Positions 1 through 6,856 of a DNA stretch of 6,856 nt are shown here, piece after piece. Every line of letters starts with the position of its first letter. The first letter of the stretch is position 1. Under the pieces are notes generated by a model. That model was not told the DNA's origin and searched no databases. It worked only from the letters and a program-made list of their open reading frames with translations. A program made the position numbers and the translations under genes. The DNA is from a virus (Duplodnaviria; Heunggongvirae; Uroviricota; Caudoviricetes), in the IMG/VR virus record IMGVR_UViG_2675903433_000039, positions 1-6,856 of that record; one strand, 5' to 3'.

Positions 1-46
1 AGGTTGCTCCGGGCTATGAAATAGAAAAATGAATCCGTTGAAGCCT
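1..46. other. Host chromosomal DNA flanking the prophage (bacterial arm of the lambda attachment site)
   Basis: Sequence ...gaaatagaaaaatgaatccgttgaagcctgc immediately left of the att core matches my recollection of the E. coli attB left arm. It is not phage-like and lies outside int. Confidence 0.7.
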
Positions 47-60
47 GCTTTTTATACTAA
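47..60. other. attL: attL core (overlap region O) of a lambda-type attachment site
   Basis: gctttttatactaa at 47-60 corresponds to the lambda common core GCTTTTTTATACTAA as I recall it. It is flanked on the left by attB-like DNA and on the right by P'-arm sequence (gttggcattataaaaaagcattgc...), which is the B-O-P' arrangement of attL. The T-run is 5 T here against 6 in my memory of the canonical core. Confidence 0.85.
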
Positions 61-133
61 GTTGGCATTATAAAAAAGCATTGCTTATCAATTTGTTGCA
101 ACGAACAGGTCACTATCAGTCAAAATAAAATCA
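61..133. promoter_or_regulatory. attL P' arm with IHF H' site and three Int arm-type sites
   Basis: tatcaatttgttg at 86-98 fits the IHF consensus WATCAANNNNTTR. Three tandem arm-type Int sites follow: aggtcactat (107-116), cagtcaaaat (117-126), aaatcattat (127-136). The position directly upstream of the int stop is as in lambda. Confidence 0.8.
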
Positions 134-1204
134 TTATTTGATTTCAATTTTGTCCCACTCCCTGCCTCTGTCATCACGATACTGTGATGCCATGGTGTCC
201 GACTTATGCCCGAGAAGATGTTGAGCAAACTTATCGCTTATCTGCTTCTCATAGAGTCTTGCAGACAAACTGCGCAACTCGTGAAAGGTCGGCGGATCCC
301 CTTCGAAGGAAAGACCTGATGCTTTTCGTGCGCGCATAAAATACCTTGATACTGTGCCGGATGAAAGCGGTTCACGATGAGTAGATGCAATTATGGTTTC
401 TCCGCCAAGAATCTCTTTGCATTTATCAAGTGTTTCCTTCATTGATATCCCGAGAGCATCAACATGCAATGTTGTAGGGATGGCAATTTTTACGCCTGTT
501 TTGCTTTGCTCGACATAAAGATATCCATCTACGATATCAGACCACTTCATTTCGCATAAATCACCAACTCGCTGCCCGGTAACAACAGCCAGCTCCATTG
601 CAAGTCTTAGCCAACATGGTGATGATTCTGCTGCTTGATAAATTTTCAGGTATTCGTCAGCCGTAAGTCTTGATCTCCTTACCTCTGATTTTGCTGCGCG
701 AGTGGCAGCGACCGGGTTTGTTGTTATATGGCCTTCAGCTATTGCCTCTCGGAATGCATCGCTCAGTGTTGATCTGATTAACTTGGCTGACGCCGCCTTG
801 CCCTCGTCTATGTATCCACTGAGCATTGCCGCAATTTCTTTTGTGGTGATGTCTTCAAGTGGAGCATCAGGCAGCCCCCTCCTTATTGCTTTAATTTTGC
901 TCATGTAATTTATGAGAGTCTTCTGCTTGATTCCTCTGCTGGCGAGGATTTTTTCGTAGCGATCAAGCCATGAATGTAACGTAACAGAATTATCACTGTT
1001 GATTCTCGCTGTCAGAGGCTTGTGTTTGTGTCCTGAAAATAACTCAATGTTGGCCTGTATTGCTTCAGTGATTGCTATCCTCCTGTCTCGGCCTAATCCA
1101 AACTCTTTACCCGTCCTTGGGTCCCTGTAGCAGTAATATCCATTGTTTCTTATATAAAGATTAGGGGGTAAATCCCGGCGCTCATGACTTCGCCTTCTTC
1201 CCAT
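134..1204 (-). CDS. int: Tyrosine site-specific integrase, lambda Int
   Basis: 356-aa ORF whose translation (MGRRRSHERRDLPPNLYIRNNGYYCYRDPRTGKEF ... HLLGHKSDTMASQYRDDRGREWDKIEIK) matches lambda Int as I recall it, including the C-terminal catalytic region (HxLR ... Y in SQYRDD). Adjacent to attL and overlapping xis by 23 nt as in lambda. Confidence 0.97.
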   Translation of the reverse strand: MGRRRSHERRDLPPNLYIRNNGYYCYRDPRTGKEFGLGRDRRIAITEAIQANIELFSGHKHKPLTARINSDNSVTLHSWLDRYEKILASRGIKQKTLINYMSKIKAIRRGLPDAPLEDITTKEIAAMLSGYIDEGKAASAKLIRSTLSDAFREAIAEGHITTNPVAATRAAKSEVRRSRLTADEYLKIYQAAESSPCWLRLAMELAVVTGQRVGDLCEMKWSDIVDGYLYVEQSKTGVKIAIPTTLHVDALGISMKETLDKCKEILGGETIIASTHREPLSSGTVSRYFMRARKASGLSFEGDPPTFHELRSLSARLYEKQISDKFAQHLLGHKSDTMASQYRDDRGREWDKIEIK

Positions 1205-1400
1205 TTCTGATCCTCTTCAAAAGGCTACCTGTTACTGGTCGATTTAAGTCAACCTTTACCGCTGATTCGTGGAACAGATACTCTCTTCCATCCTTAACCG
1301 GAGGAGGGAATATCCTGCATTCGCGCACCCATCGACGAACTGTTTCAAGGCTTCTTGGGCGTCGCTGGCGTGCATTCCACTCCTGAAGTGTCAAGTACAT
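1182..1400 (-). CDS. xis: Excisionase, lambda Xis
   Basis: 72-aa ORF MYLTLQEWNARQRRPRSLETVRRWVRECRIFPPPVKDGREYLFHESAVKVDLNRPVTGSLLKRIRNGKKAKS matches lambda Xis from memory. Its 3' end overlaps the int start by 23 nt. Confidence 0.95.
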   Translation of the reverse strand: MYLTLQEWNARQRRPRSLETVRRWVRECRIFPPPVKDGREYLFHESAVKVDLNRPVTGSLLKRIRNGKKAKS

Positions 1401-1521
1401 CGCAAAGTCTCCGCAATTACACGCAAGAAAAGCCGCATTGATGCGGCGATGGTAGGTCTGGATATCATTGAGCCATGAACAGGCCTCATCGAGTGTGAGG
1501 CTGTGGTTAGTCCTTTCGTAA

Positions 1522-1719
1522 CTCGCTGATTCTCCTGTAAGTCTCTGGTGCTTTGTTTCCGTGTATCTTCATTTCGGCGCATGGGCTTGTAGCGCGTGTC
1601 ACGATGAAATCGACCGACGCACCCATAACCTCGACAACAAAGACGCCAGACTTTACCACCTCGAAGGCGTGATCAGGACGCAGGCGATACTGCTGAAGGA
1701 GGGGAAGATTAAGTCATGA
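1522..1719 (+). pseudogene. 3' remnant of a truncated nin-region gene upstream of rusA (no credible start codon)
   Basis: An open frame runs from the stop at 1519-1521 to a TGA at 1717-1719 that overlaps the rusA ATG (ATGA coupling). It reads ...VYLHFGAWACSACHDEIDRRTHNLDNKDARLYHLEGVIRTQAILLKEGKIKS*. It has no ATG and no Shine-Dalgarno at its 5' end, consistent with a gene truncated at a deletion or recombination junction. Identity not established. Confidence 0.3.
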
Positions 1720-2078
1720 ACGAATATCAGTTTGTGCTTCCATACCCGCCGTCGGTGAATACCTACTGGCGAAGACGGGGAAGCCAATACTACATCAGCG
1801 ATAAAGGCCAGAAATACCGAAAAGACGTTCAGCAAATCATCCACCAACTCAAGTTAGATATTTTCACCAAATCACGACTCCGCATCAAAGTAATCGCAGA
1901 CGTTCCAGACTCCCGCCGCCGCGACCTAGATAACATCCTGAAGGGTTTACTCGACTCCCTTATCCATGCCGGATTTGCGGAAGACGACGAGCAATTCGAT
2001 GACATTCGCGTAATTCGTGGTGTGAAAGTACCAGGCGGACGGCTTGGAATAAAAATCACCGAACTGGAGAACGCATGA
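1716..2078 (+). CDS. rusA: Holliday junction resolvase RusA (lambdoid nin-region endonuclease)
   Basis: 120-aa ORF with RusA hallmarks shared with E. coli K-12 RusA as I recall it: N-terminal LPYPPSVNTYW (K-12: LPWPPSNNRYY), the RRRDLDN motif with catalytic Asp residues, and C-terminal GGRLGIKITE. Same length as K-12 RusA. Good RBS (aggagg/ggaag) upstream; the stop overlaps the next ATG. Confidence 0.9.
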   Translation: MNEYQFVLPYPPSVNTYWRRRGSQYYISDKGQKYRKDVQQIIHQLKLDIFTKSRLRIKVIADVPDSRRRDLDNILKGLLDSLIHAGFAEDDEQFDDIRVIRGVKVPGGRLGIKITELENA

Positions 2079-2263
2079 ACGCCACAATTCAAACGATACC
2101 AGAGCTTCTTATCCAGACACGAGGCAATCAGACCGAAGTGGCGAGGATGCTTTCCTGCGCAAGAGGAACAGTGCTCAAGTACAACCGAGACAGCAAAGGC
2201 GAGCGTCATGTAATAGTTAACGGCGTCCTGATGGTCAAACAGGGCAAGAGGGGAAGACGATGA
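2075..2263 (+). CDS. ninH: NinH-like small DNA-binding protein (nin region)
   Basis: 62-aa ORF MNATIQTIPELLIQTRGNQTEVARMLSCARGTVLKYNRDSKGERHVIVNGVLMVKQGKRGRR resembles lambda NinH as I recall it (..KTIPDML..YGNQTEVARRL.CSRGTV.KY..D..G..H.IVN.VLMV..). Translationally coupled to rusA (ATGA). The C-terminus diverges from lambda NinH just before the low-GC insertion. Confidence 0.75.
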   Translation: MNATIQTIPELLIQTRGNQTEVARMLSCARGTVLKYNRDSKGERHVIVNGVLMVKQGKRGRR

Positions 2264-2391
2264 GACTCGAAAGCGTAGCTAAATTTCATTCGCCAAAAAG
2301 CCCGATGATGAGCGACTCACTACTGGCCACAGTTTATTGGTTTTCGTAACTGAGTCATTTTATTATTTTATTGCAACTTTTAATCTTTTAT

Positions 2392-2428
2392 AGTGCGAAA
2401 TAAATGGAGCTGGCATTCATTTCGCACT
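2392..2428 (+). terminator. Perfect 10-bp inverted repeat (agtgcgaaat / atttcgcact) with a 17-nt loop, followed by a T-rich tract; possible terminator of rightward nin transcription
   Basis: Arms at 2392-2401 and 2419-2428 are exact reverse complements. ttatgtttttgttgg follows on the plus strand. The loop is long for a canonical intrinsic terminator, hence the low confidence. Confidence 0.3.
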
Positions 2429-2474
2429 TTATGTTTTTGTTGGACTTATGTTATTTTGATTGAATTCAATTCAG

Positions 2475-3434
2475 TTAAAAAAAGAAGGTGATTGCTCCAT
2501 TTATAAATGAATAGTCATCCCCTGTCTTGAATTCTGATGTTACTTTATTAAATGCTAGTGTGAAGGCTACAGGTGCATACCCAATTGTTGCGCCAACTTG
2601 ATATTCATCAACAGTTTTGTTTAGCGATACTGTTGTTTGTTTCGTCTGTATTGTTTTTCCTTCGAGAGTATAGTTGCGATTGACATCTCGTCTTTCCATA
2701 CCTGCAAAAATCTTGTATTTGAATCCGCTTGTATCGGACATATGCATTAAACCACGGGGAGCCAGCAGACCAAAGCCATTATCCGAATTGAAGGTTTTAT
2801 CATTACCAATGGCAATGGTTGCGCCATATGCTACATATTGAAATAAGTTTCCAGTAACAGCAGAAACTTCAGGGTATAATCCAACATTAGCACCTAAAAT
2901 ATCCATACTTGGTGTCATGGATAGCATCCCTTTTACAGTATAACCGTAGCGATTCTCTATTTGATCATCCCATGCATGATATTTTTCTGCCCCAATAATC
3001 TCATGAGCTTTATTTTGTACTTTCTGACCGCCTGCGTCGGGGCCAACAACACCTATGTCAGTACCTAATCGATAGCGAATCCAGTCATTCGCAAGGGAGT
3101 TCCATTCAATACCAGTGTGAGTGTATGCACTAAAAGCTCTGTCTCCAGTTACAGCTGTGTTGTGTCTTTTATTACTGCCTGATGGAGAGTAAATATCTTG
3201 CGCAATATGGAGAGATAATTGGCTCGAGTCTGAGATATCGTGGCTATATCCCAGAAATAAGCCTTGTGAGTAATCATCTCTGTTTTCATGTTTATTGCCA
3301 TAAATATCATTAAGTATTGGTTGAAACTTCCCTGCATCATCATTTGCTAATGATAATGCAAGGCTGTTCGCGATAGCTGAACACGTGGTAAATGACAGAG
3401 CAATAAAGACGCCAGCGATGACACTTTTTTTCAT
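2475..3434 (-). CDS. lpxR: Outer-membrane lipid A 3'-O-deacylase LpxR (beta-barrel, signal peptide); prophage accessory gene
   Basis: 319-aa ORF with an N-terminal signal peptide (MKKSVIAGVFIALSFTTCSAIA) and a C-terminal aromatic ...ITFFF typical of outer-membrane beta-barrels. Length and sequence character match Salmonella LpxR and its E. coli O157 prophage orthologue as I recall them. RBS GGAAG lies 10 nt upstream of the ATG. Low GC relative to the flanking phage genes. Confidence 0.7.
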   Translation of the reverse strand: MKKSVIAGVFIALSFTTCSAIANSLALSLANDDAGKFQPILNDIYGNKHENRDDYSQGLFLGYSHDISDSSQLSLHIAQDIYSPSGSNKRHNTAVTGDRAFSAYTHTGIEWNSLANDWIRYRLGTDIGVVGPDAGGQKVQNKAHEIIGAEKYHAWDDQIENRYGYTVKGMLSMTPSMDILGANVGLYPEVSAVTGNLFQYVAYGATIAIGNDKTFNSDNGFGLLAPRGLMHMSDTSGFKYKIFAGMERRDVNRNYTLEGKTIQTKQTTVSLNKTVDEYQVGATIGYAPVAFTLAFNKVTSEFKTGDDYSFINGAITFFF

Positions 3435-3720
3435 ATGTTATTGTCTTCCTTTTTTTTGAATGGTGCGCGTATTTTACATACATGAGTTTGTAATACAAGG
3501 TGCGTAATCAATATGATGTTTTATAATTGCGTGAGACAATTGATTTATTCGTTTTTTATTGCGGTTTTTATTATCTTTTAATGTAACGGTGTTTTTATTA
3601 AGTGTGTTTGCGTGGTGTTTTATGTTTTTTATAATTTTTATTTTATTAAATTTAAAAGCATTAGTAATGGCTATTCTATATAGCAATATAAGAACTGTTA
3701 CAAAAAAAGGGGGGGCAATT
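3435..3720. promoter_or_regulatory. AT-rich, T-tract-phased (probably intrinsically curved) upstream region of lpxR; likely promoter and silencing region
   Basis: Very AT-rich intergenic DNA with T-runs recurring at roughly helical spacing between about 3550 and 3650. Lies directly upstream of the lpxR start (minus strand) and divergent from the Q-like gene. Confidence 0.3.
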
Positions 3721-3909
3721 ACAGGTAGTTATGGATGATGAGTGAAACAGATATTGGAGAACCGGGGAATGAATGATGTCTGAGTCTTATATATCAGAAC
3801 TCCTTCGCTGTCGCTGGGGGCTCCTGTGCTTATGTCGTTTCCCCGATTCGGTTTTGAACGATTACCGAATGTTGAAGAATTATGCCAAAATATAGAAAGG
3901 ATTTACTGC

Positions 3910-4599
3910 ATGAATACCCAATATTTACAGTATGTTCGTGAGCAACTTATGGCAGCTACTGCTGACTTGAACGGAGCAACGAAAGGCCAGCTCGAAGCCT
4001 GGCAGGAGCATGCACAATTTGATACTGGTACATACAAACGAAAGAAGCCGCGCATTCTGGATGTGGTAACTGGCAAGATGATTACGCTGGATAATACGCC
4101 GACTTCCGGTAAGCAGTCGTACGCAAAAGGTTCATCCATTGCTTTGGTCAGCCCGGTTGAATTCTCAACCTCTTCATGGCGCCGCGCGGTTTTGTCTCTC
4201 GATGAACATCAGAAAGCATGGTTGCTTTGGTGTTACAGCGAAAGCGTTCGATGGGGGCATCAGGTCACCATAACGCAATGGGCATGGAGCGAGTTTAAAG
4301 ATTTGTTAAGTAACAGAAAAATTGCAGGTAAGACACTGGATCGCCTGAAGACGTTAATCTGGCTGGCTGCACAGGATGTGAAGAGCGAACTTGCAGGGCG
4401 TGAGGCCTATGAATACCAGACACTGGCATCATTGGTGGGAGTGACAACAAAAAACTGGTCCGAGACATTTACTGAACGCTGGGTTGCAATGAAGCACATT
4501 TTTCTACAGCTTGATAGTGATGCTTTATTGCTTGTGACGAGAACACGTTCAAAACAAAAGGCAGCATTTTTACAGCAAAATATTGCAAAACTGGATTAA
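3910..4599 (+). CDS. Putative late-gene antiterminator Q (large Q-like family of lambdoid prophages); the longest ORF starts at 3826
   Basis: Located between the nin genes and the lysis cassette, where Q sits in lambdoid phages. The ~230-257 aa size is consistent with the large Q variants annotated in E. coli prophages. The ATG at 3910 has a good RBS (aaagga, 8 nt spacer); the upstream in-frame ATG at 3826 has a weaker one. Assignment is by position and general resemblance, not verified by search. Confidence 0.55.
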   Translation: MNTQYLQYVREQLMAATADLNGATKGQLEAWQEHAQFDTGTYKRKKPRILDVVTGKMITLDNTPTSGKQSYAKGSSIALVSPVEFSTSSWRRAVLSLDEHQKAWLLWCYSESVRWGHQVTITQWAWSEFKDLLSNRKIAGKTLDRLKTLIWLAAQDVKSELAGREAYEYQTLASLVGVTTKNWSETFTERWVAMKHIFLQLDSDALLLVTRTRSKQKAAFLQQNIAKLD

Positions 4600-4647
4600 A
4601 AGCCATATACTTCATGCAAATTTGGTATGTTGTAAAAAATGTATAAA

Positions 4648-4671
4648 CCCGCTGCCGAGTGGGTTTTTTTT
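4648..4671 (+). terminator. Rho-independent terminator-like hairpin ~50 bp downstream of the Q-like gene
   Basis: Stem cccgct (4648-4653) / agtggg (4658-4663) with one G-U pair, loop gccg, followed by a run of 8 T (4664-4671). An A-tract upstream (aaaaaatgtataaa) could make it bidirectional. Confidence 0.5.
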
Positions 4672-4743
4672 ATGCCCTGAGTTGTACTTGTACGGTAAAC
4701 ATGCTGGCTGCTATGTAATAGAGTTTTTTTAGCCTGTAACCTC

Positions 4744-4773
4744 TTGACGGCATTGAATTGCTTTTGTTATGAG
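4744..4773 (+). promoter_or_regulatory. Sigma70-like promoter candidate upstream of the membrane-protein gene (possible late promoter pR' or moron promoter)
   Basis: TTGACG (4744-4749), a 17-18 bp spacer, then TTATGA/TATGAG. The spacer contains ATTGAA at the same position as in lambda pR' (TTGACTtATTGAA...) as I recall it. A tandem TTGTAC TTGTAC repeat at 4682-4693 lies just upstream. Confidence 0.3.
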
Positions 4774-4810
4774 TTGTAAGCCAATGTTATCATCTTGTAT
4801 TGGGGTGGTT

Positions 4811-5527
4811 ATGAAGGATGGTGCGCTGCTCAGGAGTTCTTCACTTTTTATTGCCTACATGGGATGCCTTGGATGGGGGAGTGCTTATTTCTATGGATGG
4901 GGTACTTCTTTTTACTACGGCTTCCCATGGTGGATTGTAGGTGCAGGTGTTGATGATGTTGCCAGAAGTTTATTTTTTGCAGTTATCGTCATTGCTATAT
5001 TTCTTATCGGTTGGGGTATTGGTGTTGTATTCTTTTTCGCAGTGAAAAGAAAACATTCTATGCAAGAGCTAAATGTATTTCGCCTTTATTTTGCTGTGGA
5101 ATTATTGTTTGTGCCGGCAATTATTGAGTTTTCTATATTGAGACAGAAGATTCAGGTACCTCTTTTGCTACTGTCAGCAGCGATTGCGCTGGCGGTTACA
5201 ATTTCGATAAGATCTTATGGGCGATTTTTATCGGTATCATGCTTCTATGATAAGCCATTTATAAAAAAACATTTTTTTGAGATTGTGATGATTGCTTTTG
5301 TGGCATATTTTTGGCTTTTTTCATTTCTGACAGGATATTACAAACCACAGTTTAAGAAAGAATATGAAATGATTAATTATAATGATGGTTGGTATTATGT
5401 TCTTGCTCGTTATGATAATTGTCTGGTTTTGTCTACTTCTTTCAATGCAGGTAGTAAAAGGTTTGTCATTTATCAATCAGCACAAGATAAGAATCTTCAG
5501 GTTGATATTGTAAGGACCAGAATTTAA
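4811..5527 (+). CDS. Uncharacterised integral membrane protein (about five predicted TM helices plus a ~60-aa C-terminal soluble domain); low-GC accessory gene
   Basis: Long ORF (maximal 4769-5527; alternative starts at 4769, 4784 and 4811, with gggg/ggtgg upstream of 4811). Hydrophobic segments include FAVIVIAIFLIGWGIGVVFFFAV, LYFAVELLFVPAIIEFSIL, LLLLSAAIALAVTISI and FFEIVMIAFVAYFWLFSFLTGYY, with an aromatic/Gly-rich N-terminal segment (GWGSAYFYGWGTSFYYGFPWW). Codon usage is AT-rich compared with neighbouring phage genes. No family recognised. Confidence 0.7.
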   Translation: MKDGALLRSSSLFIAYMGCLGWGSAYFYGWGTSFYYGFPWWIVGAGVDDVARSLFFAVIVIAIFLIGWGIGVVFFFAVKRKHSMQELNVFRLYFAVELLFVPAIIEFSILRQKIQVPLLLLSAAIALAVTISIRSYGRFLSVSCFYDKPFIKKHFFEIVMIAFVAYFWLFSFLTGYYKPQFKKEYEMINYNDGWYYVLARYDNCLVLSTSFNAGSKRFVIYQSAQDKNLQVDIVRTRI

Positions 5528-5660
5528 TTGGCTGCATAAATAATATTTTAAGTTGCAAGTTGGCTATTCGTAGGAATAGAACCTTAGGCATGCTGAATGC
5601 GTTTTCTGAACATTGTTTTATAAACTGTGTCTGCTTGCTGTTGTGATCCTGCTTTTAGTG

Positions 5661-5771
5661 ATGGTGATGATGGATTTCACCAGCAGGATAATGTTGGTAC
5701 TGACTGATGGCGCTCTGGTCTGCGGCATTGTGGTATTGCTGTGGCCGATGATGAAAGAACAGAATGAATAA
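5661..5771 (+). CDS. Hypothetical 36-aa hydrophobic micro-protein (MVMMDFTSRIMLVLTDGALVCGIVVLLWPMMKEQNE)
   Basis: Short ORF with one predicted TM segment, ending 3 nt before the -35 of the downstream promoter-like element. It has no obvious Shine-Dalgarno and contains the rare AGG-ATA codon pair, so coding status is uncertain. Confidence 0.2.
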   Translation: MVMMDFTSRIMLVLTDGALVCGIVVLLWPMMKEQNE

Positions 5772-5774
5772 TTC

Positions 5775-5803
5775 TTGACTTTTTTGTTTACTGTTTATTA
5801 AAA
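5775..5803 (+). promoter_or_regulatory. Late-promoter-like element (pR' candidate): TTGACT -35, ~17 bp spacer, A/T-rich -10
   Basis: TTGACT at 5775-5780, then a 17-bp spacer and TTAAAA (or TATTAA with a shorter spacer). An intrinsic terminator lies about 175 nt downstream and the holin start about 410 bp beyond that, a geometry like the lambda pR'-tR'-S arrangement as I recall it. Confidence 0.35.
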
Positions 5804-5957
5804 AATCAACCGCATGGTGAATCCTCCTTGGAGGGGCTAAATGATCGAGTTTTAAGGGCACGTAGCGAGTTCTGTTTGATCATTGCAGAACTTAGCGGGA
5901 GGCGCCATGCGTACATCACTAATGTTATTTCCTTCTATCATTTTCCTTGTGAGTTCT

Positions 5958-5984
5958 GGCTGCGCATGGCGCGGCCTTTTTTTT
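5958..5984 (+). terminator. Rho-independent terminator (tR'-like) in the late leader
   Basis: GC-rich stem ggctgcgc (5958-5965) / gcgcggcc (5969-5976) with one G-U pair and a short loop, followed by 8 consecutive T (5977-5984). Confidence 0.55.
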
Positions 5985-6173
5985 ATGACCTGCCACTGGC
6001 AGATGGTCATCCTGTGATTTGATTCCGGTTCCGGCTTTTTAACTCTGTTCCTGTACACGGGAGAAATTCTATGTCGATTAATCGTTATGATATTGGTTAC
6101 AAGAAGTACCACGTATTGTGTTGAGATAGAAAGCATGGTGCCAGAGGTAAATGCAGCAGCATAATAAAAAAGA

Positions 6174-6213
6174 GCCAGCGCAGAAGAGAACGGGTAAAAG
6201 AGTCTGCGCTGGC
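6174..6213. repeat. Perfect 11-bp inverted repeat (gccagcgcaga / tctgcgctggc) with an 18-nt loop, adjacent to a second small GGGG/CCCC hairpin
   Basis: Arms at 6174-6184 and 6203-6213 are exact reverse complements. On the minus strand the structure is followed by ctcttttttattat, so it could act as a minus-strand terminator. ggggatattcccc follows at 6216-6228. Confidence 0.4.
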
Positions 6214-6329
6214 GTGGGGATATTCCCCGTGGAGAAATGATATGTAACACACATCGGGAACCTTTCTATATAAACATTATCATTATTGTCAATCATAACA
6301 GTCAGGTATTATGACGTTTATGCATCAGG

Positions 6330-6360
6330 GCCATCAGGAATTAACTGGTGGCTTTTTATT
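6330..6360 (+). terminator. Terminator-like hairpin 35 bp upstream of the holin start
   Basis: Stem gccatcag (6330-6337) / ctggtggc (6345-6352) with one G-U pair, loop gaattaa, followed by tttttatt (6353-6360). Confidence 0.45.
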
Positions 6361-6392
6361 GTTGTCAGCTTCCGGATAACGGGAGACGGGGT

Positions 6393-6608
6393 ATGTACCA
6401 GATGGAAAAAATAACAACAGGTGTGTCATACACCACGTCAGCGGTGGGGACGGGATACTGGCTACTGCAGTTGCTGGACAAAGTCTCCCCATCCCAGTGG
6501 GTGGCAATAGGCGTATTGGGTAGCCTGGTGTTTGGCTTGCTGACGTATCTGACAAACCTTTATTTCAAGATTAAAGAAGATAAGCGTAAGGCTGCGAGAG
6601 GTGAATAA
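6393..6608 (+). CDS. Phage-21-type holin (pinholin, S21/EssD family) with dual-start motif
   Basis: Translation [71 protein letters not shown] closely resembles S21/EssD as I recall them (..[44 protein letters not shown]). RBS gggaga upstream. Met1 and Met4 form the holin/antiholin dual start. The ORF track extends the frame upstream to 6348, but that start has no RBS. Confidence 0.92.
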
Positions 6609-6856
6609 TGTCGCCATCATTACGCAAGGCTGTTGCTGCTGCTATTGGTGGTGGGGCTGTTGCCATAGCGTCTGTGCTCATCACTGGTCCGAGTGGTGAC
6701 GATGGCCTGGAAGGTGTCAGCTACATACCATACGAAGATATCGTTGGCGTATGGACTGTATGTCACGGACACACCGGAAAAGACATCATTCCCGGTAAAA
6801 CGTATACCAAAGCAGAATGCAAAGCACTCTTGAATAAAGACCTTGCCACTGTCGCC
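6608..6856 (+). CDS. SAR endolysin (phage-21 R-type lysozyme), 5' partial; continues past the window end
   Basis: The ATG at 6608 overlaps the holin stop (TAATG). Translation [83 protein letters not shown] matches the N-terminal signal-anchor-release domain and start of the lysozyme domain of R21/RrrD as I recall them. Open to the end of the window. Confidence 0.9.

Follow-up and report, generated by a model that had tools for sequence, protein, structure and literature searches.

An lpxR cassette in the nin-Q interval of a lambdoid prophage

The DNA analysed here is the 6,856 nucleotide (nt) stretch at positions 1 to 6,856 of the IMG/VR virus record IMGVR_UViG_2675903433_000039 (Caudoviricetes). 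This whole stretch is referred to as the window, and its gene content is that of a lambda-like prophage remnant. A preliminary description, made from the sequence alone, had singled out the interval 2264–3825 as the site of an oppositely oriented gene for an LpxR-like lipid A deacylase. The interval contains an open reading frame (ORF) of 319 amino acids (aa) on the minus strand, set in AT-rich DNA among rightward genes. To its left are ninH and the 5' stump of a Q antiterminator gene, and to its right are ylcG and a complete Q gene (Table 1).

The lpxR gene and its product

By its similarity to known families and structures the ORF is LpxR, a lipid A 3'-O-deacylase, the gene for which has already been characterised in enterohaemorrhagic Escherichia coli (EHEC). 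The Pfam family PF09982 (LpxR) matches with E 6.8e-40 and 137.4 bits, where the cut-off is 26, and residues 10–318 are aligned to positions 2–320 of a profile of 323. The crystallised LpxR of Salmonella Typhimurium (PDB 3FID) is matched with E 3.6e-153. Here residues 24–319 of the query align with 2–296 of the chain, with a single gap of one residue and identity at 220 of 296 positions (74.3%). These values place the match far beyond chance. The coding sequence (CDS) is in addition 100% identical at the nucleotide level to lpxR of many O157:H7, O145, O111, O103, and O26 strains, where the Prokaryotic Genome Annotation Pipeline names it 'lipid A deacylase LpxR family protein'. The O157:H7 gene has the RefSeq protein WP_000750155.1 and the locus tag Z0955 in strain EDL933 (PMC4699771). 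The similarity to both the Salmonella and the E. coli O157 proteins is overwhelming, and the identification in the preliminary description is borne out.

In PHROGs v4 the full-length LpxR family is phrog_2309, which matches with E 3e-230 yet is labelled 'unknown function'. No NCBIfam model matches LpxR. The phrog_2309 label and the NCBIfam blank are an annotation gap, not a biological one.

Two features of outer-membrane targeting, a cleavable signal peptide and an aromatic C-terminal beta-signal, can be read from the sequence. The N-terminus resembles a signal peptide (MKKSVIAGVFIALSFTTCSAIA followed by NS), with MKK at the start, a hydrophobic core, and AIA before the N at which the mature protein of 297 aa would begin. 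Alignment with the mature 3FID chain begins at residue 24, and the protein closes with GAITFFF, an aromatic C-terminus typical of outer-membrane barrels. Because the 74% identity to 3FID extends across the whole mature chain, the fold is likely to be a 12-stranded beta-barrel.

The Salmonella protein is of the same family and length, and has Ca2+-dependent 3'-O-deacylase activity (PMC6863877, PMC6260217). Its Ca2+-binding and catalytic residues N9, D10, T34, Q118, H122, and E128 correspond to N31, D32, S56, Q140, H144, and E150 of the EHEC protein (PMC6863877); the residues and the mechanism are also discussed in PMC6260217. Three further positions, D11, K67, and K129 in the Salmonella numbering, were included in the comparison. 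The window LpxR has N31, D32, D33, S56, K89, Q140, H144, E150, and K151, so all positions checked are filled and the predicted conservation of the active site is confirmed. Eight of these nine residues are the same as in Salmonella, the difference being at position 34, which is Thr in Salmonella and Ser in the window.

It could be argued that this LpxR-like barrel is catalytically dead or has been repurposed, and that it does not deacylate lipid A but serves, for example, as a phage surface protein for superinfection exclusion or as a receptor. The activity of Salmonella LpxR is relatively low (PMC6260217), the family carries no function label in PHROGs, and Ser replaces Thr at position 34. 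However, T34S is a change already reported for the active EHEC LpxR (PMC6863877), and every residue reported to be needed for Ca2+ binding and catalysis is kept. The window gene is also nucleotide-identical to the EHEC gene, deletion of which lowers lipid A deacylation according to papers that cite Ogawa et al. 2018 (PMC6863877, PMC6393859). A barrel without deacylase activity is therefore very improbable.

Table 1. Features of the window. Positions are those of the 6,856 nt stretch; Q' and ybcO' are partial genes.
Feature	Position	Strand	Basis or remark
Integrase	134..1204	minus	
Excisionase	1182..1400	minus	
ybcO-type nuclease, C-terminal part (ybcO')	1561..1719		
rusA	1716..2078		
ninH, 62 aa	2075..2263	+	Pfam PF06322 (Phage_NinH) E 2e-24; left neighbour outside the cassette
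Q' stump, 29-codon ORF	2260..2349	+	First 20 codons lambda-type Q (MRLESVAKFHSPKSPMMSDS), then 9 unrelated codons and stop
AT-rich lpxR cassette, about 1.44 kb, GC 0.36	~2328..3763	.	Homology end points and composition
Perfect 15 bp hairpin, 47 nt 3' of the lpxR stop	2392..2428	.	Folding and conservation
lpxR CDS, 319 aa, intact	2475..3434	minus	Pfam LpxR, 3FID, O157:H7 identity
lpxR signal peptide, residues 1–22 (predicted)	3369..3434	minus	Read from sequence
lpxR upstream region, 29% GC	3435..3772	minus	Composition, conservation
ylcG, 40 aa, right-hand linker	3773..3895	+	NCBIfam NF033498 E 7e-13
Complete Q82-type late antiterminator Q, 229 aa	3910..4599	+	Pfam PF06323 (Phage_antiter_Q) E 2e-91; phrog_304; RefSeq start
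Intrinsic terminator 3' of Q, tR'-like target of Q antitermination	4645..4666	+	Terminator scan; annotated at the same place in phage 434
Membrane protein, 252 aa, multi-pass, directly 3' of Q	4769..5527	+	PHROGs phrog_1521, unknown function
TciB-like DUF3927 peptide	5613..5771		After the 252 aa membrane protein
P21-type holin, then start of lysozyme gene	Right end of window		

Cassette boundaries and flanking genes

The cassette that carries lpxR is bounded by lambda Q homology on the left and by homology to the rus-ylcG region of phage 82 and DLP12 on the right. The very AT-rich flanks noted previously are evident, with a GC content of 0.28 at 2331–2474 and 0.29 at 3435–3772 compared with 0.50 in the nin genes (ybcO'-rusA-ninH). 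The GC content of Q is 0.46, and the profile falls to 24–33% on either side of the lpxR ORF.

On the left, the stop codon of ninH overlaps the ATG of the Q stump at 2260. In phage 434 the stump bears the annotation of an N-terminal Q fragment, RefSeq lists it as a partial antitermination protein, and the start of lambda Q is 97% identical to 2264–2330. A prophage of E. coli VE-F5 (L009) has ybcO-rusA-ninH without lpxR. It is 97.5% identical to the window over 1574–2327 and then runs on as an intact lambda-type Q of 207 aa. The left joint thus falls some 65 nt into the Q gene instead of at the ninH end, and the alignment places the recombination at about 2321–2332. This does not agree with the suggestion that the C-terminus of NinH diverges from lambda NinH at the insertion boundary, since the differences between the window NinH and lambda NinH are spread over the full length of the protein. 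Nor has ninH been altered by the insertion, as the same 62 aa allele, apart from its last residue, precedes the intact Q in VE-F5.

At the right edge, the sequence becomes homologous to phage 82 and DLP12 from 3764, 9 nt before the ATG of ylcG, a point that corresponds to the 3' end of rus in those phages. The ylcG gene is 85% identical to that of DLP12 and is annotated in phage 434 and RefSeq. The Q gene had been given a GTG start at 3826. This start, which falls inside ylcG, is probably wrong. RefSeq and the phage 434 annotation point to ATG 3910, and in the ORF from GTG 3826 the Pfam Q match does not set in until residue 32. ATG 3910 is most likely the true start. The lpxR gene does lie between ninH and a Q, as first described, but the insertion itself is not between these two; it is between the 5' Q stump and a ylcG-Q82-type module. 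Neither the stump ORF nor ylcG had been mentioned for the interval. A weak match to the small RNA (sRNA) STnc240 at 4606–4675 (+) overlaps the terminator after Q.

No target-site duplications or terminal inverted repeats were found at the cassette ends beyond short matches at chance level, such as the 12 nt pair GATGATGAGCGA / GATGATGAGTGA at 2304 and 3734. Transposition is rejected as the origin of the cassette for lack of meaningful terminal repeats, and illegitimate and homologous recombination is favoured. The non-coding flanks of the cassette match nothing among phage records except phage 434. Searched against Rfam with a permissive threshold, 2264–3825 yielded no RNA gene.

Distribution and mobility of the cassette

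Of 5426 complete E. coli genomes, 622 have lpxR, and in 620 of these its identity is at least 99%. All 620 genomes with this close allele have the whole Q'-lpxR-ylcG unit, followed by a Q82-type Q, and lpxR stays intact in them although the prophage around it has decayed to varying degrees. The prophage adjoins ybhC, the lambda attachment region, in two strains. Among the IMG/VR loci, 52 of 54 have the same cassette, preceded by either rusA-ninH or ninI, and two of these change to another Q after ylcG. Since the same cassette joins differing left and right modules, its distribution fits that of cargo moved from one prophage to another through homologous exchange within conserved linkers. The cassette is present or absent between homologous modules, as the VE-F5 prophage illustrates, its GC content is deviant (0.36 against 0.50 in the nin genes), and its flanks differ. 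The interval is best read as holding a lysogenic-conversion cassette ('moron') carried by lambdoid prophages whose integration takes place by ybhC, at the lambda attachment site.

Two named relatives share this arrangement. In O157:H7, lpxR is in a defective lambdoid prophage by ybhC that carries insertion sequence (IS) elements together with nleB2 and nleC. The O157:H7 prophage has the same Q'-lpxR-ylcG-Q order and downstream genes, with 99.7% identity over 2249–6856. The difference is upstream of the Q stump, where O157:H7 has ninG-ninI and the window has ybcO'-rusA-ninH; the window prophage also has an additional deletion of 4.6 kb. Phage 434 (OL657226) has the same cassette, Q stump, ylcG, and Q82-like Q, with 99.3% identity over 2249–6095. 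The 1.56 kb interval, also 99.3% identical, is annotated there with an N-terminal Q fragment, an LpxR deacylase (CPT_434_65, 'outer membrane beta-barrel lipid A deacylase LpxR'), a YlcG-like protein, and a Q82-like antiterminator. Unlike the window, phage 434 is complete and viable, has ninI upstream, and has an 8 nt deletion in the lpxR 3' flank. The viability of phage 434 indicates that the lpxR-Q arrangement is tolerated.

That the insertion was a recent, disruptive break of the phage Q gene, with lpxR as debris in a dying prophage and not as maintained cargo, might be supposed from the truncated Q at the left edge, the 4.6 kb missing from the window prophage with its regulatory region, and the defective, IS-bearing prophage of O157:H7, yet a complete second Q of the 82 type and its terminator follow the cassette, the arrangement is identical in viable phage 434, and the cassette is conserved with lpxR intact in 620 variously decayed prophages, so that this explanation deserves scarcely any credence.

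Other oppositely oriented genes for outer-membrane or surface proteins are found between conserved late-regulatory modules, namely nmpC after quuD in DLP12 and bor/iss after the lysis genes. These encode a porin and a lipoprotein, respectively, of families that are unrelated to LpxR and have no enzymatic action on lipid A. Salmonella lpxR is chromosomal and is not known to lie in a nin-Q interval.

More distant lpxR alleles occur elsewhere. One with 71% protein identity is at the tail-fibre end of a different prophage in two IMG/VR loci (L063, at 835–1794, and L064), with IS fragments, a tail-fibre gene, a tail-fibre assembly gene, and a family-2 glycosyltransferase gene as neighbours. This suggests a second, independent phage capture of lpxR, beside another lipopolysaccharide-modifying gene. 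An allele with 83% nucleotide identity is on the E. coli plasmid pJNE23-001_1 (L005, 5001–5960), among IS remnants and near an M91 zinc metallopeptidase gene. In Citrobacter sp. ANG330 a chromosomal allele with 73% identity is immediately upstream of phoP-phoQ (L008, 3995–4960). The Citrobacter allele and the second prophage allele were considered as donors of the cassette and rejected, as they match only inside the CDS (73% nucleotide identity) and have no flank homology.

Regulatory sequence around lpxR

The AT-rich region upstream of lpxR is presumed to be the site of silencing by H-NS and of activation by Ler and Pch, the part of H-NS being suggested by base composition. Its proximal 90 nt or so (3435–3525) are conserved even in loci that are 5–8% divergent elsewhere, and 3525–3600 is variable. 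A Shine-Dalgarno sequence, AAGGAAG, can be read directly. A weak σ70-like pair, TTGTAT (3498–3493) and TAAAAT (3476–3471) with a spacing of 16 nt, may be the lpxR promoter.

On the 3' side, the hairpin at 2392–2428 folds with -19.1 kcal/mol on the minus strand (z -6.4) and -16 kcal/mol on the plus strand (z -2.7). Its stem is invariant in the loci that are 5–8% divergent elsewhere, and it was not called by the consensus terminator scan. The hairpin is a candidate for the 3'-end structure of lpxR, for a terminator of rightward transcription from nin to Q, or for both. As a U-run follows on the plus strand only, it could terminate nin-to-Q transcription as much as it could end lpxR.

The preliminary description held that read-through from the nin genes would have to cross lpxR in the antisense direction to reach Q. 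By analogy with lambda, this applies to intact relatives such as phage 434, where N-modified transcription from PR would have to cross lpxR because Q is downstream of it without any other obvious promoter. It does not apply to the window, a remnant without its early region; no PR or N is left there and the argument is moot. An unlikely, if conceivable, extension is that the hairpin is a terminator which N can suppress and which, in the lysogen, keeps antisense transcription out of lpxR. When an intact relative such as phage 434 is induced, polymerase from PR, modified by N, would then pass the hairpin and cross lpxR antisense to Q, and transcriptional interference would shut off deacylation just as the phage turns lytic. 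Were this true, K-12 lysogens of the laboratory phage 434 would carry a silent, largely unremarked lipid A-remodelling gene.

A minus-strand terminator-like hairpin is present at 4003–3986 in the 5' part of Q, and could stop leftward antisense transcripts of the paQ type short of lpxR. Near the 3' end of Q, the phage 434 annotation marks a CII site and paQ.

MicF has been reported to target lpxR in Salmonella. When the first 35 nt of E. coli MicF were paired with the 5' region of the window lpxR, the best duplex, of -13 to -14.6 kcal/mol, joined MicF nt 1–12 to lpxR +93 to +104, where the Asn-Asp-Asp codons lie. Of 300 shuffles, 76 did at least as well, and no significant MicF site was shown in the region.

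The prophage remnant

The closest fuller prophage is that of E. coli UTME-9 (L007). Window positions 1–1575 are 100% identical to 2838–4412 of this locus, and 1574–6856 are 99.8% identical to 9001–14279. Compared with UTME-9, the window has lost about 4.6 kb between xis and ybcO, containing an IS3 element, ren', ninB, ninE, ninF, kilAC, and the 5' part of ybcO. The deletion joint (1574/1575) fuses int-xis to the truncated ybcO, and is spanned by no complete E. coli genome and by none of the retrieved loci. In UTME-9 itself the repressor-N-PR region has already been replaced by an IS3 element.

The membrane protein encoded directly after Q has no match in Pfam or NCBIfam, and is also kept in phage 434 and the EHEC prophages. 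Between the DUF3927 gene and the holin gene, an STnc100-like sRNA match at 5782–5987 (+) scores 37.7 bits (E 1e-5), short of the gathering score of 47. The prophage sRNAs PasD1 and PasD2 are placed together with STnc100 in a 2026 preprint, which reports Q and LpxR genes at most 10 kb from more than 98% of PasD copies. On the strength of this grouping and of the neighbouring Q and LpxR genes, the match at 5782–5987 is probably a PasD gene. A weak Esr41-like match at 6164–6253 (-), just upstream of the holin gene, has 32 bits (E 0.0035) against a gathering score of 102, and ends in a terminator-like 3' hairpin.

Function and significance of the cassette

For the enzymatic activity, the immune effect, and the control by Ler and Pch, this account draws on the literature on the identical EHEC gene, largely as it is summarised in papers citing Ogawa et al. 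2018. According to these, EHEC lpxR confers lipid A 3'-O-deacylase activity (PMC6393859, PMC6863877), both Pch and Ler are required for its activation (PMC6393859, PMC9263587), and TLR4-dependent inflammatory and phagocytic responses rise when it is lost (PMC6393859, PMC6863877, PMC9263587, PMC7649339). The gene belongs to the LEE modulon (LEE, locus of enterocyte effacement; PMC9263587), and is strongly associated with LEE across E. coli (PMC6724679). LpxR has also been proposed as an EHEC vaccine antigen (PMC6863877). A host-interaction gene delivered by a prophage, as had been suggested, is thus supported through identity to an O157:H7 gene with reported deacylation, activation by Ler and Pch, and dampening of TLR4 responses, in so far as the citing papers relay that work.

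From these parts a course of action can be proposed. The window lpxR would be a self-contained gene, transcribed leftward, the product of which would be exported via Sec, cut after residue 22, and inserted in the outer membrane as a barrel of 12 strands. Bound Ca2+, held by N31, D32, and S56, and a water molecule activated by H144 with the support of E150 would hydrolyse the 3'-acyloxyacyl ester of lipid A. Hexa-acylated lipid A would become tetra-acylated, with weaker stimulation of TLR4/MD-2. The AT-rich flanks would make lpxR a likely target of H-NS, and in LEE-positive E. coli Ler and Pch would switch it on along with the type III secretion regulon.

Taken as a whole, the locus is best explained as a lysogenic-conversion lpxR cassette of lambdoid prophages that encodes an active outer-membrane deacylase, and there is little doubt of this. 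The explanation rests on the LpxR identity, the active-site residues, and the anatomy, boundaries, and distribution of the cassette, as observed here. Several points weigh against it. The early region of this prophage remnant is lost, and PR and N with it. Expression of lpxR in this genome would depend on whether the host carries Ler and Pch. The consensus scans called neither a promoter nor a terminator for lpxR, the promoter-like matches in the AT-rich upstream region being at chance level. The U-rich tail of the 3' hairpin is on the plus strand only, with no U-run on the lpxR strand.

The feature first described is supported as real and its identification as correct, with a biology that was already known; the observation as a whole is partly confirmed. 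Both the gene and its prophage setting had been reported, and the window adds no new biology. What it provides is the exact boundaries of the cassette, the correction concerning ninH, and the labelling gap at phrog_2309 in PHROGs. LpxR lowers the endotoxic activity of lipid A and shares its regulation with the LEE type III secretion system. The presence of lpxR therefore indicates that the source strain belongs to, or has exchanged prophages with, the LEE-positive pool of enteropathogenic E. coli and EHEC.

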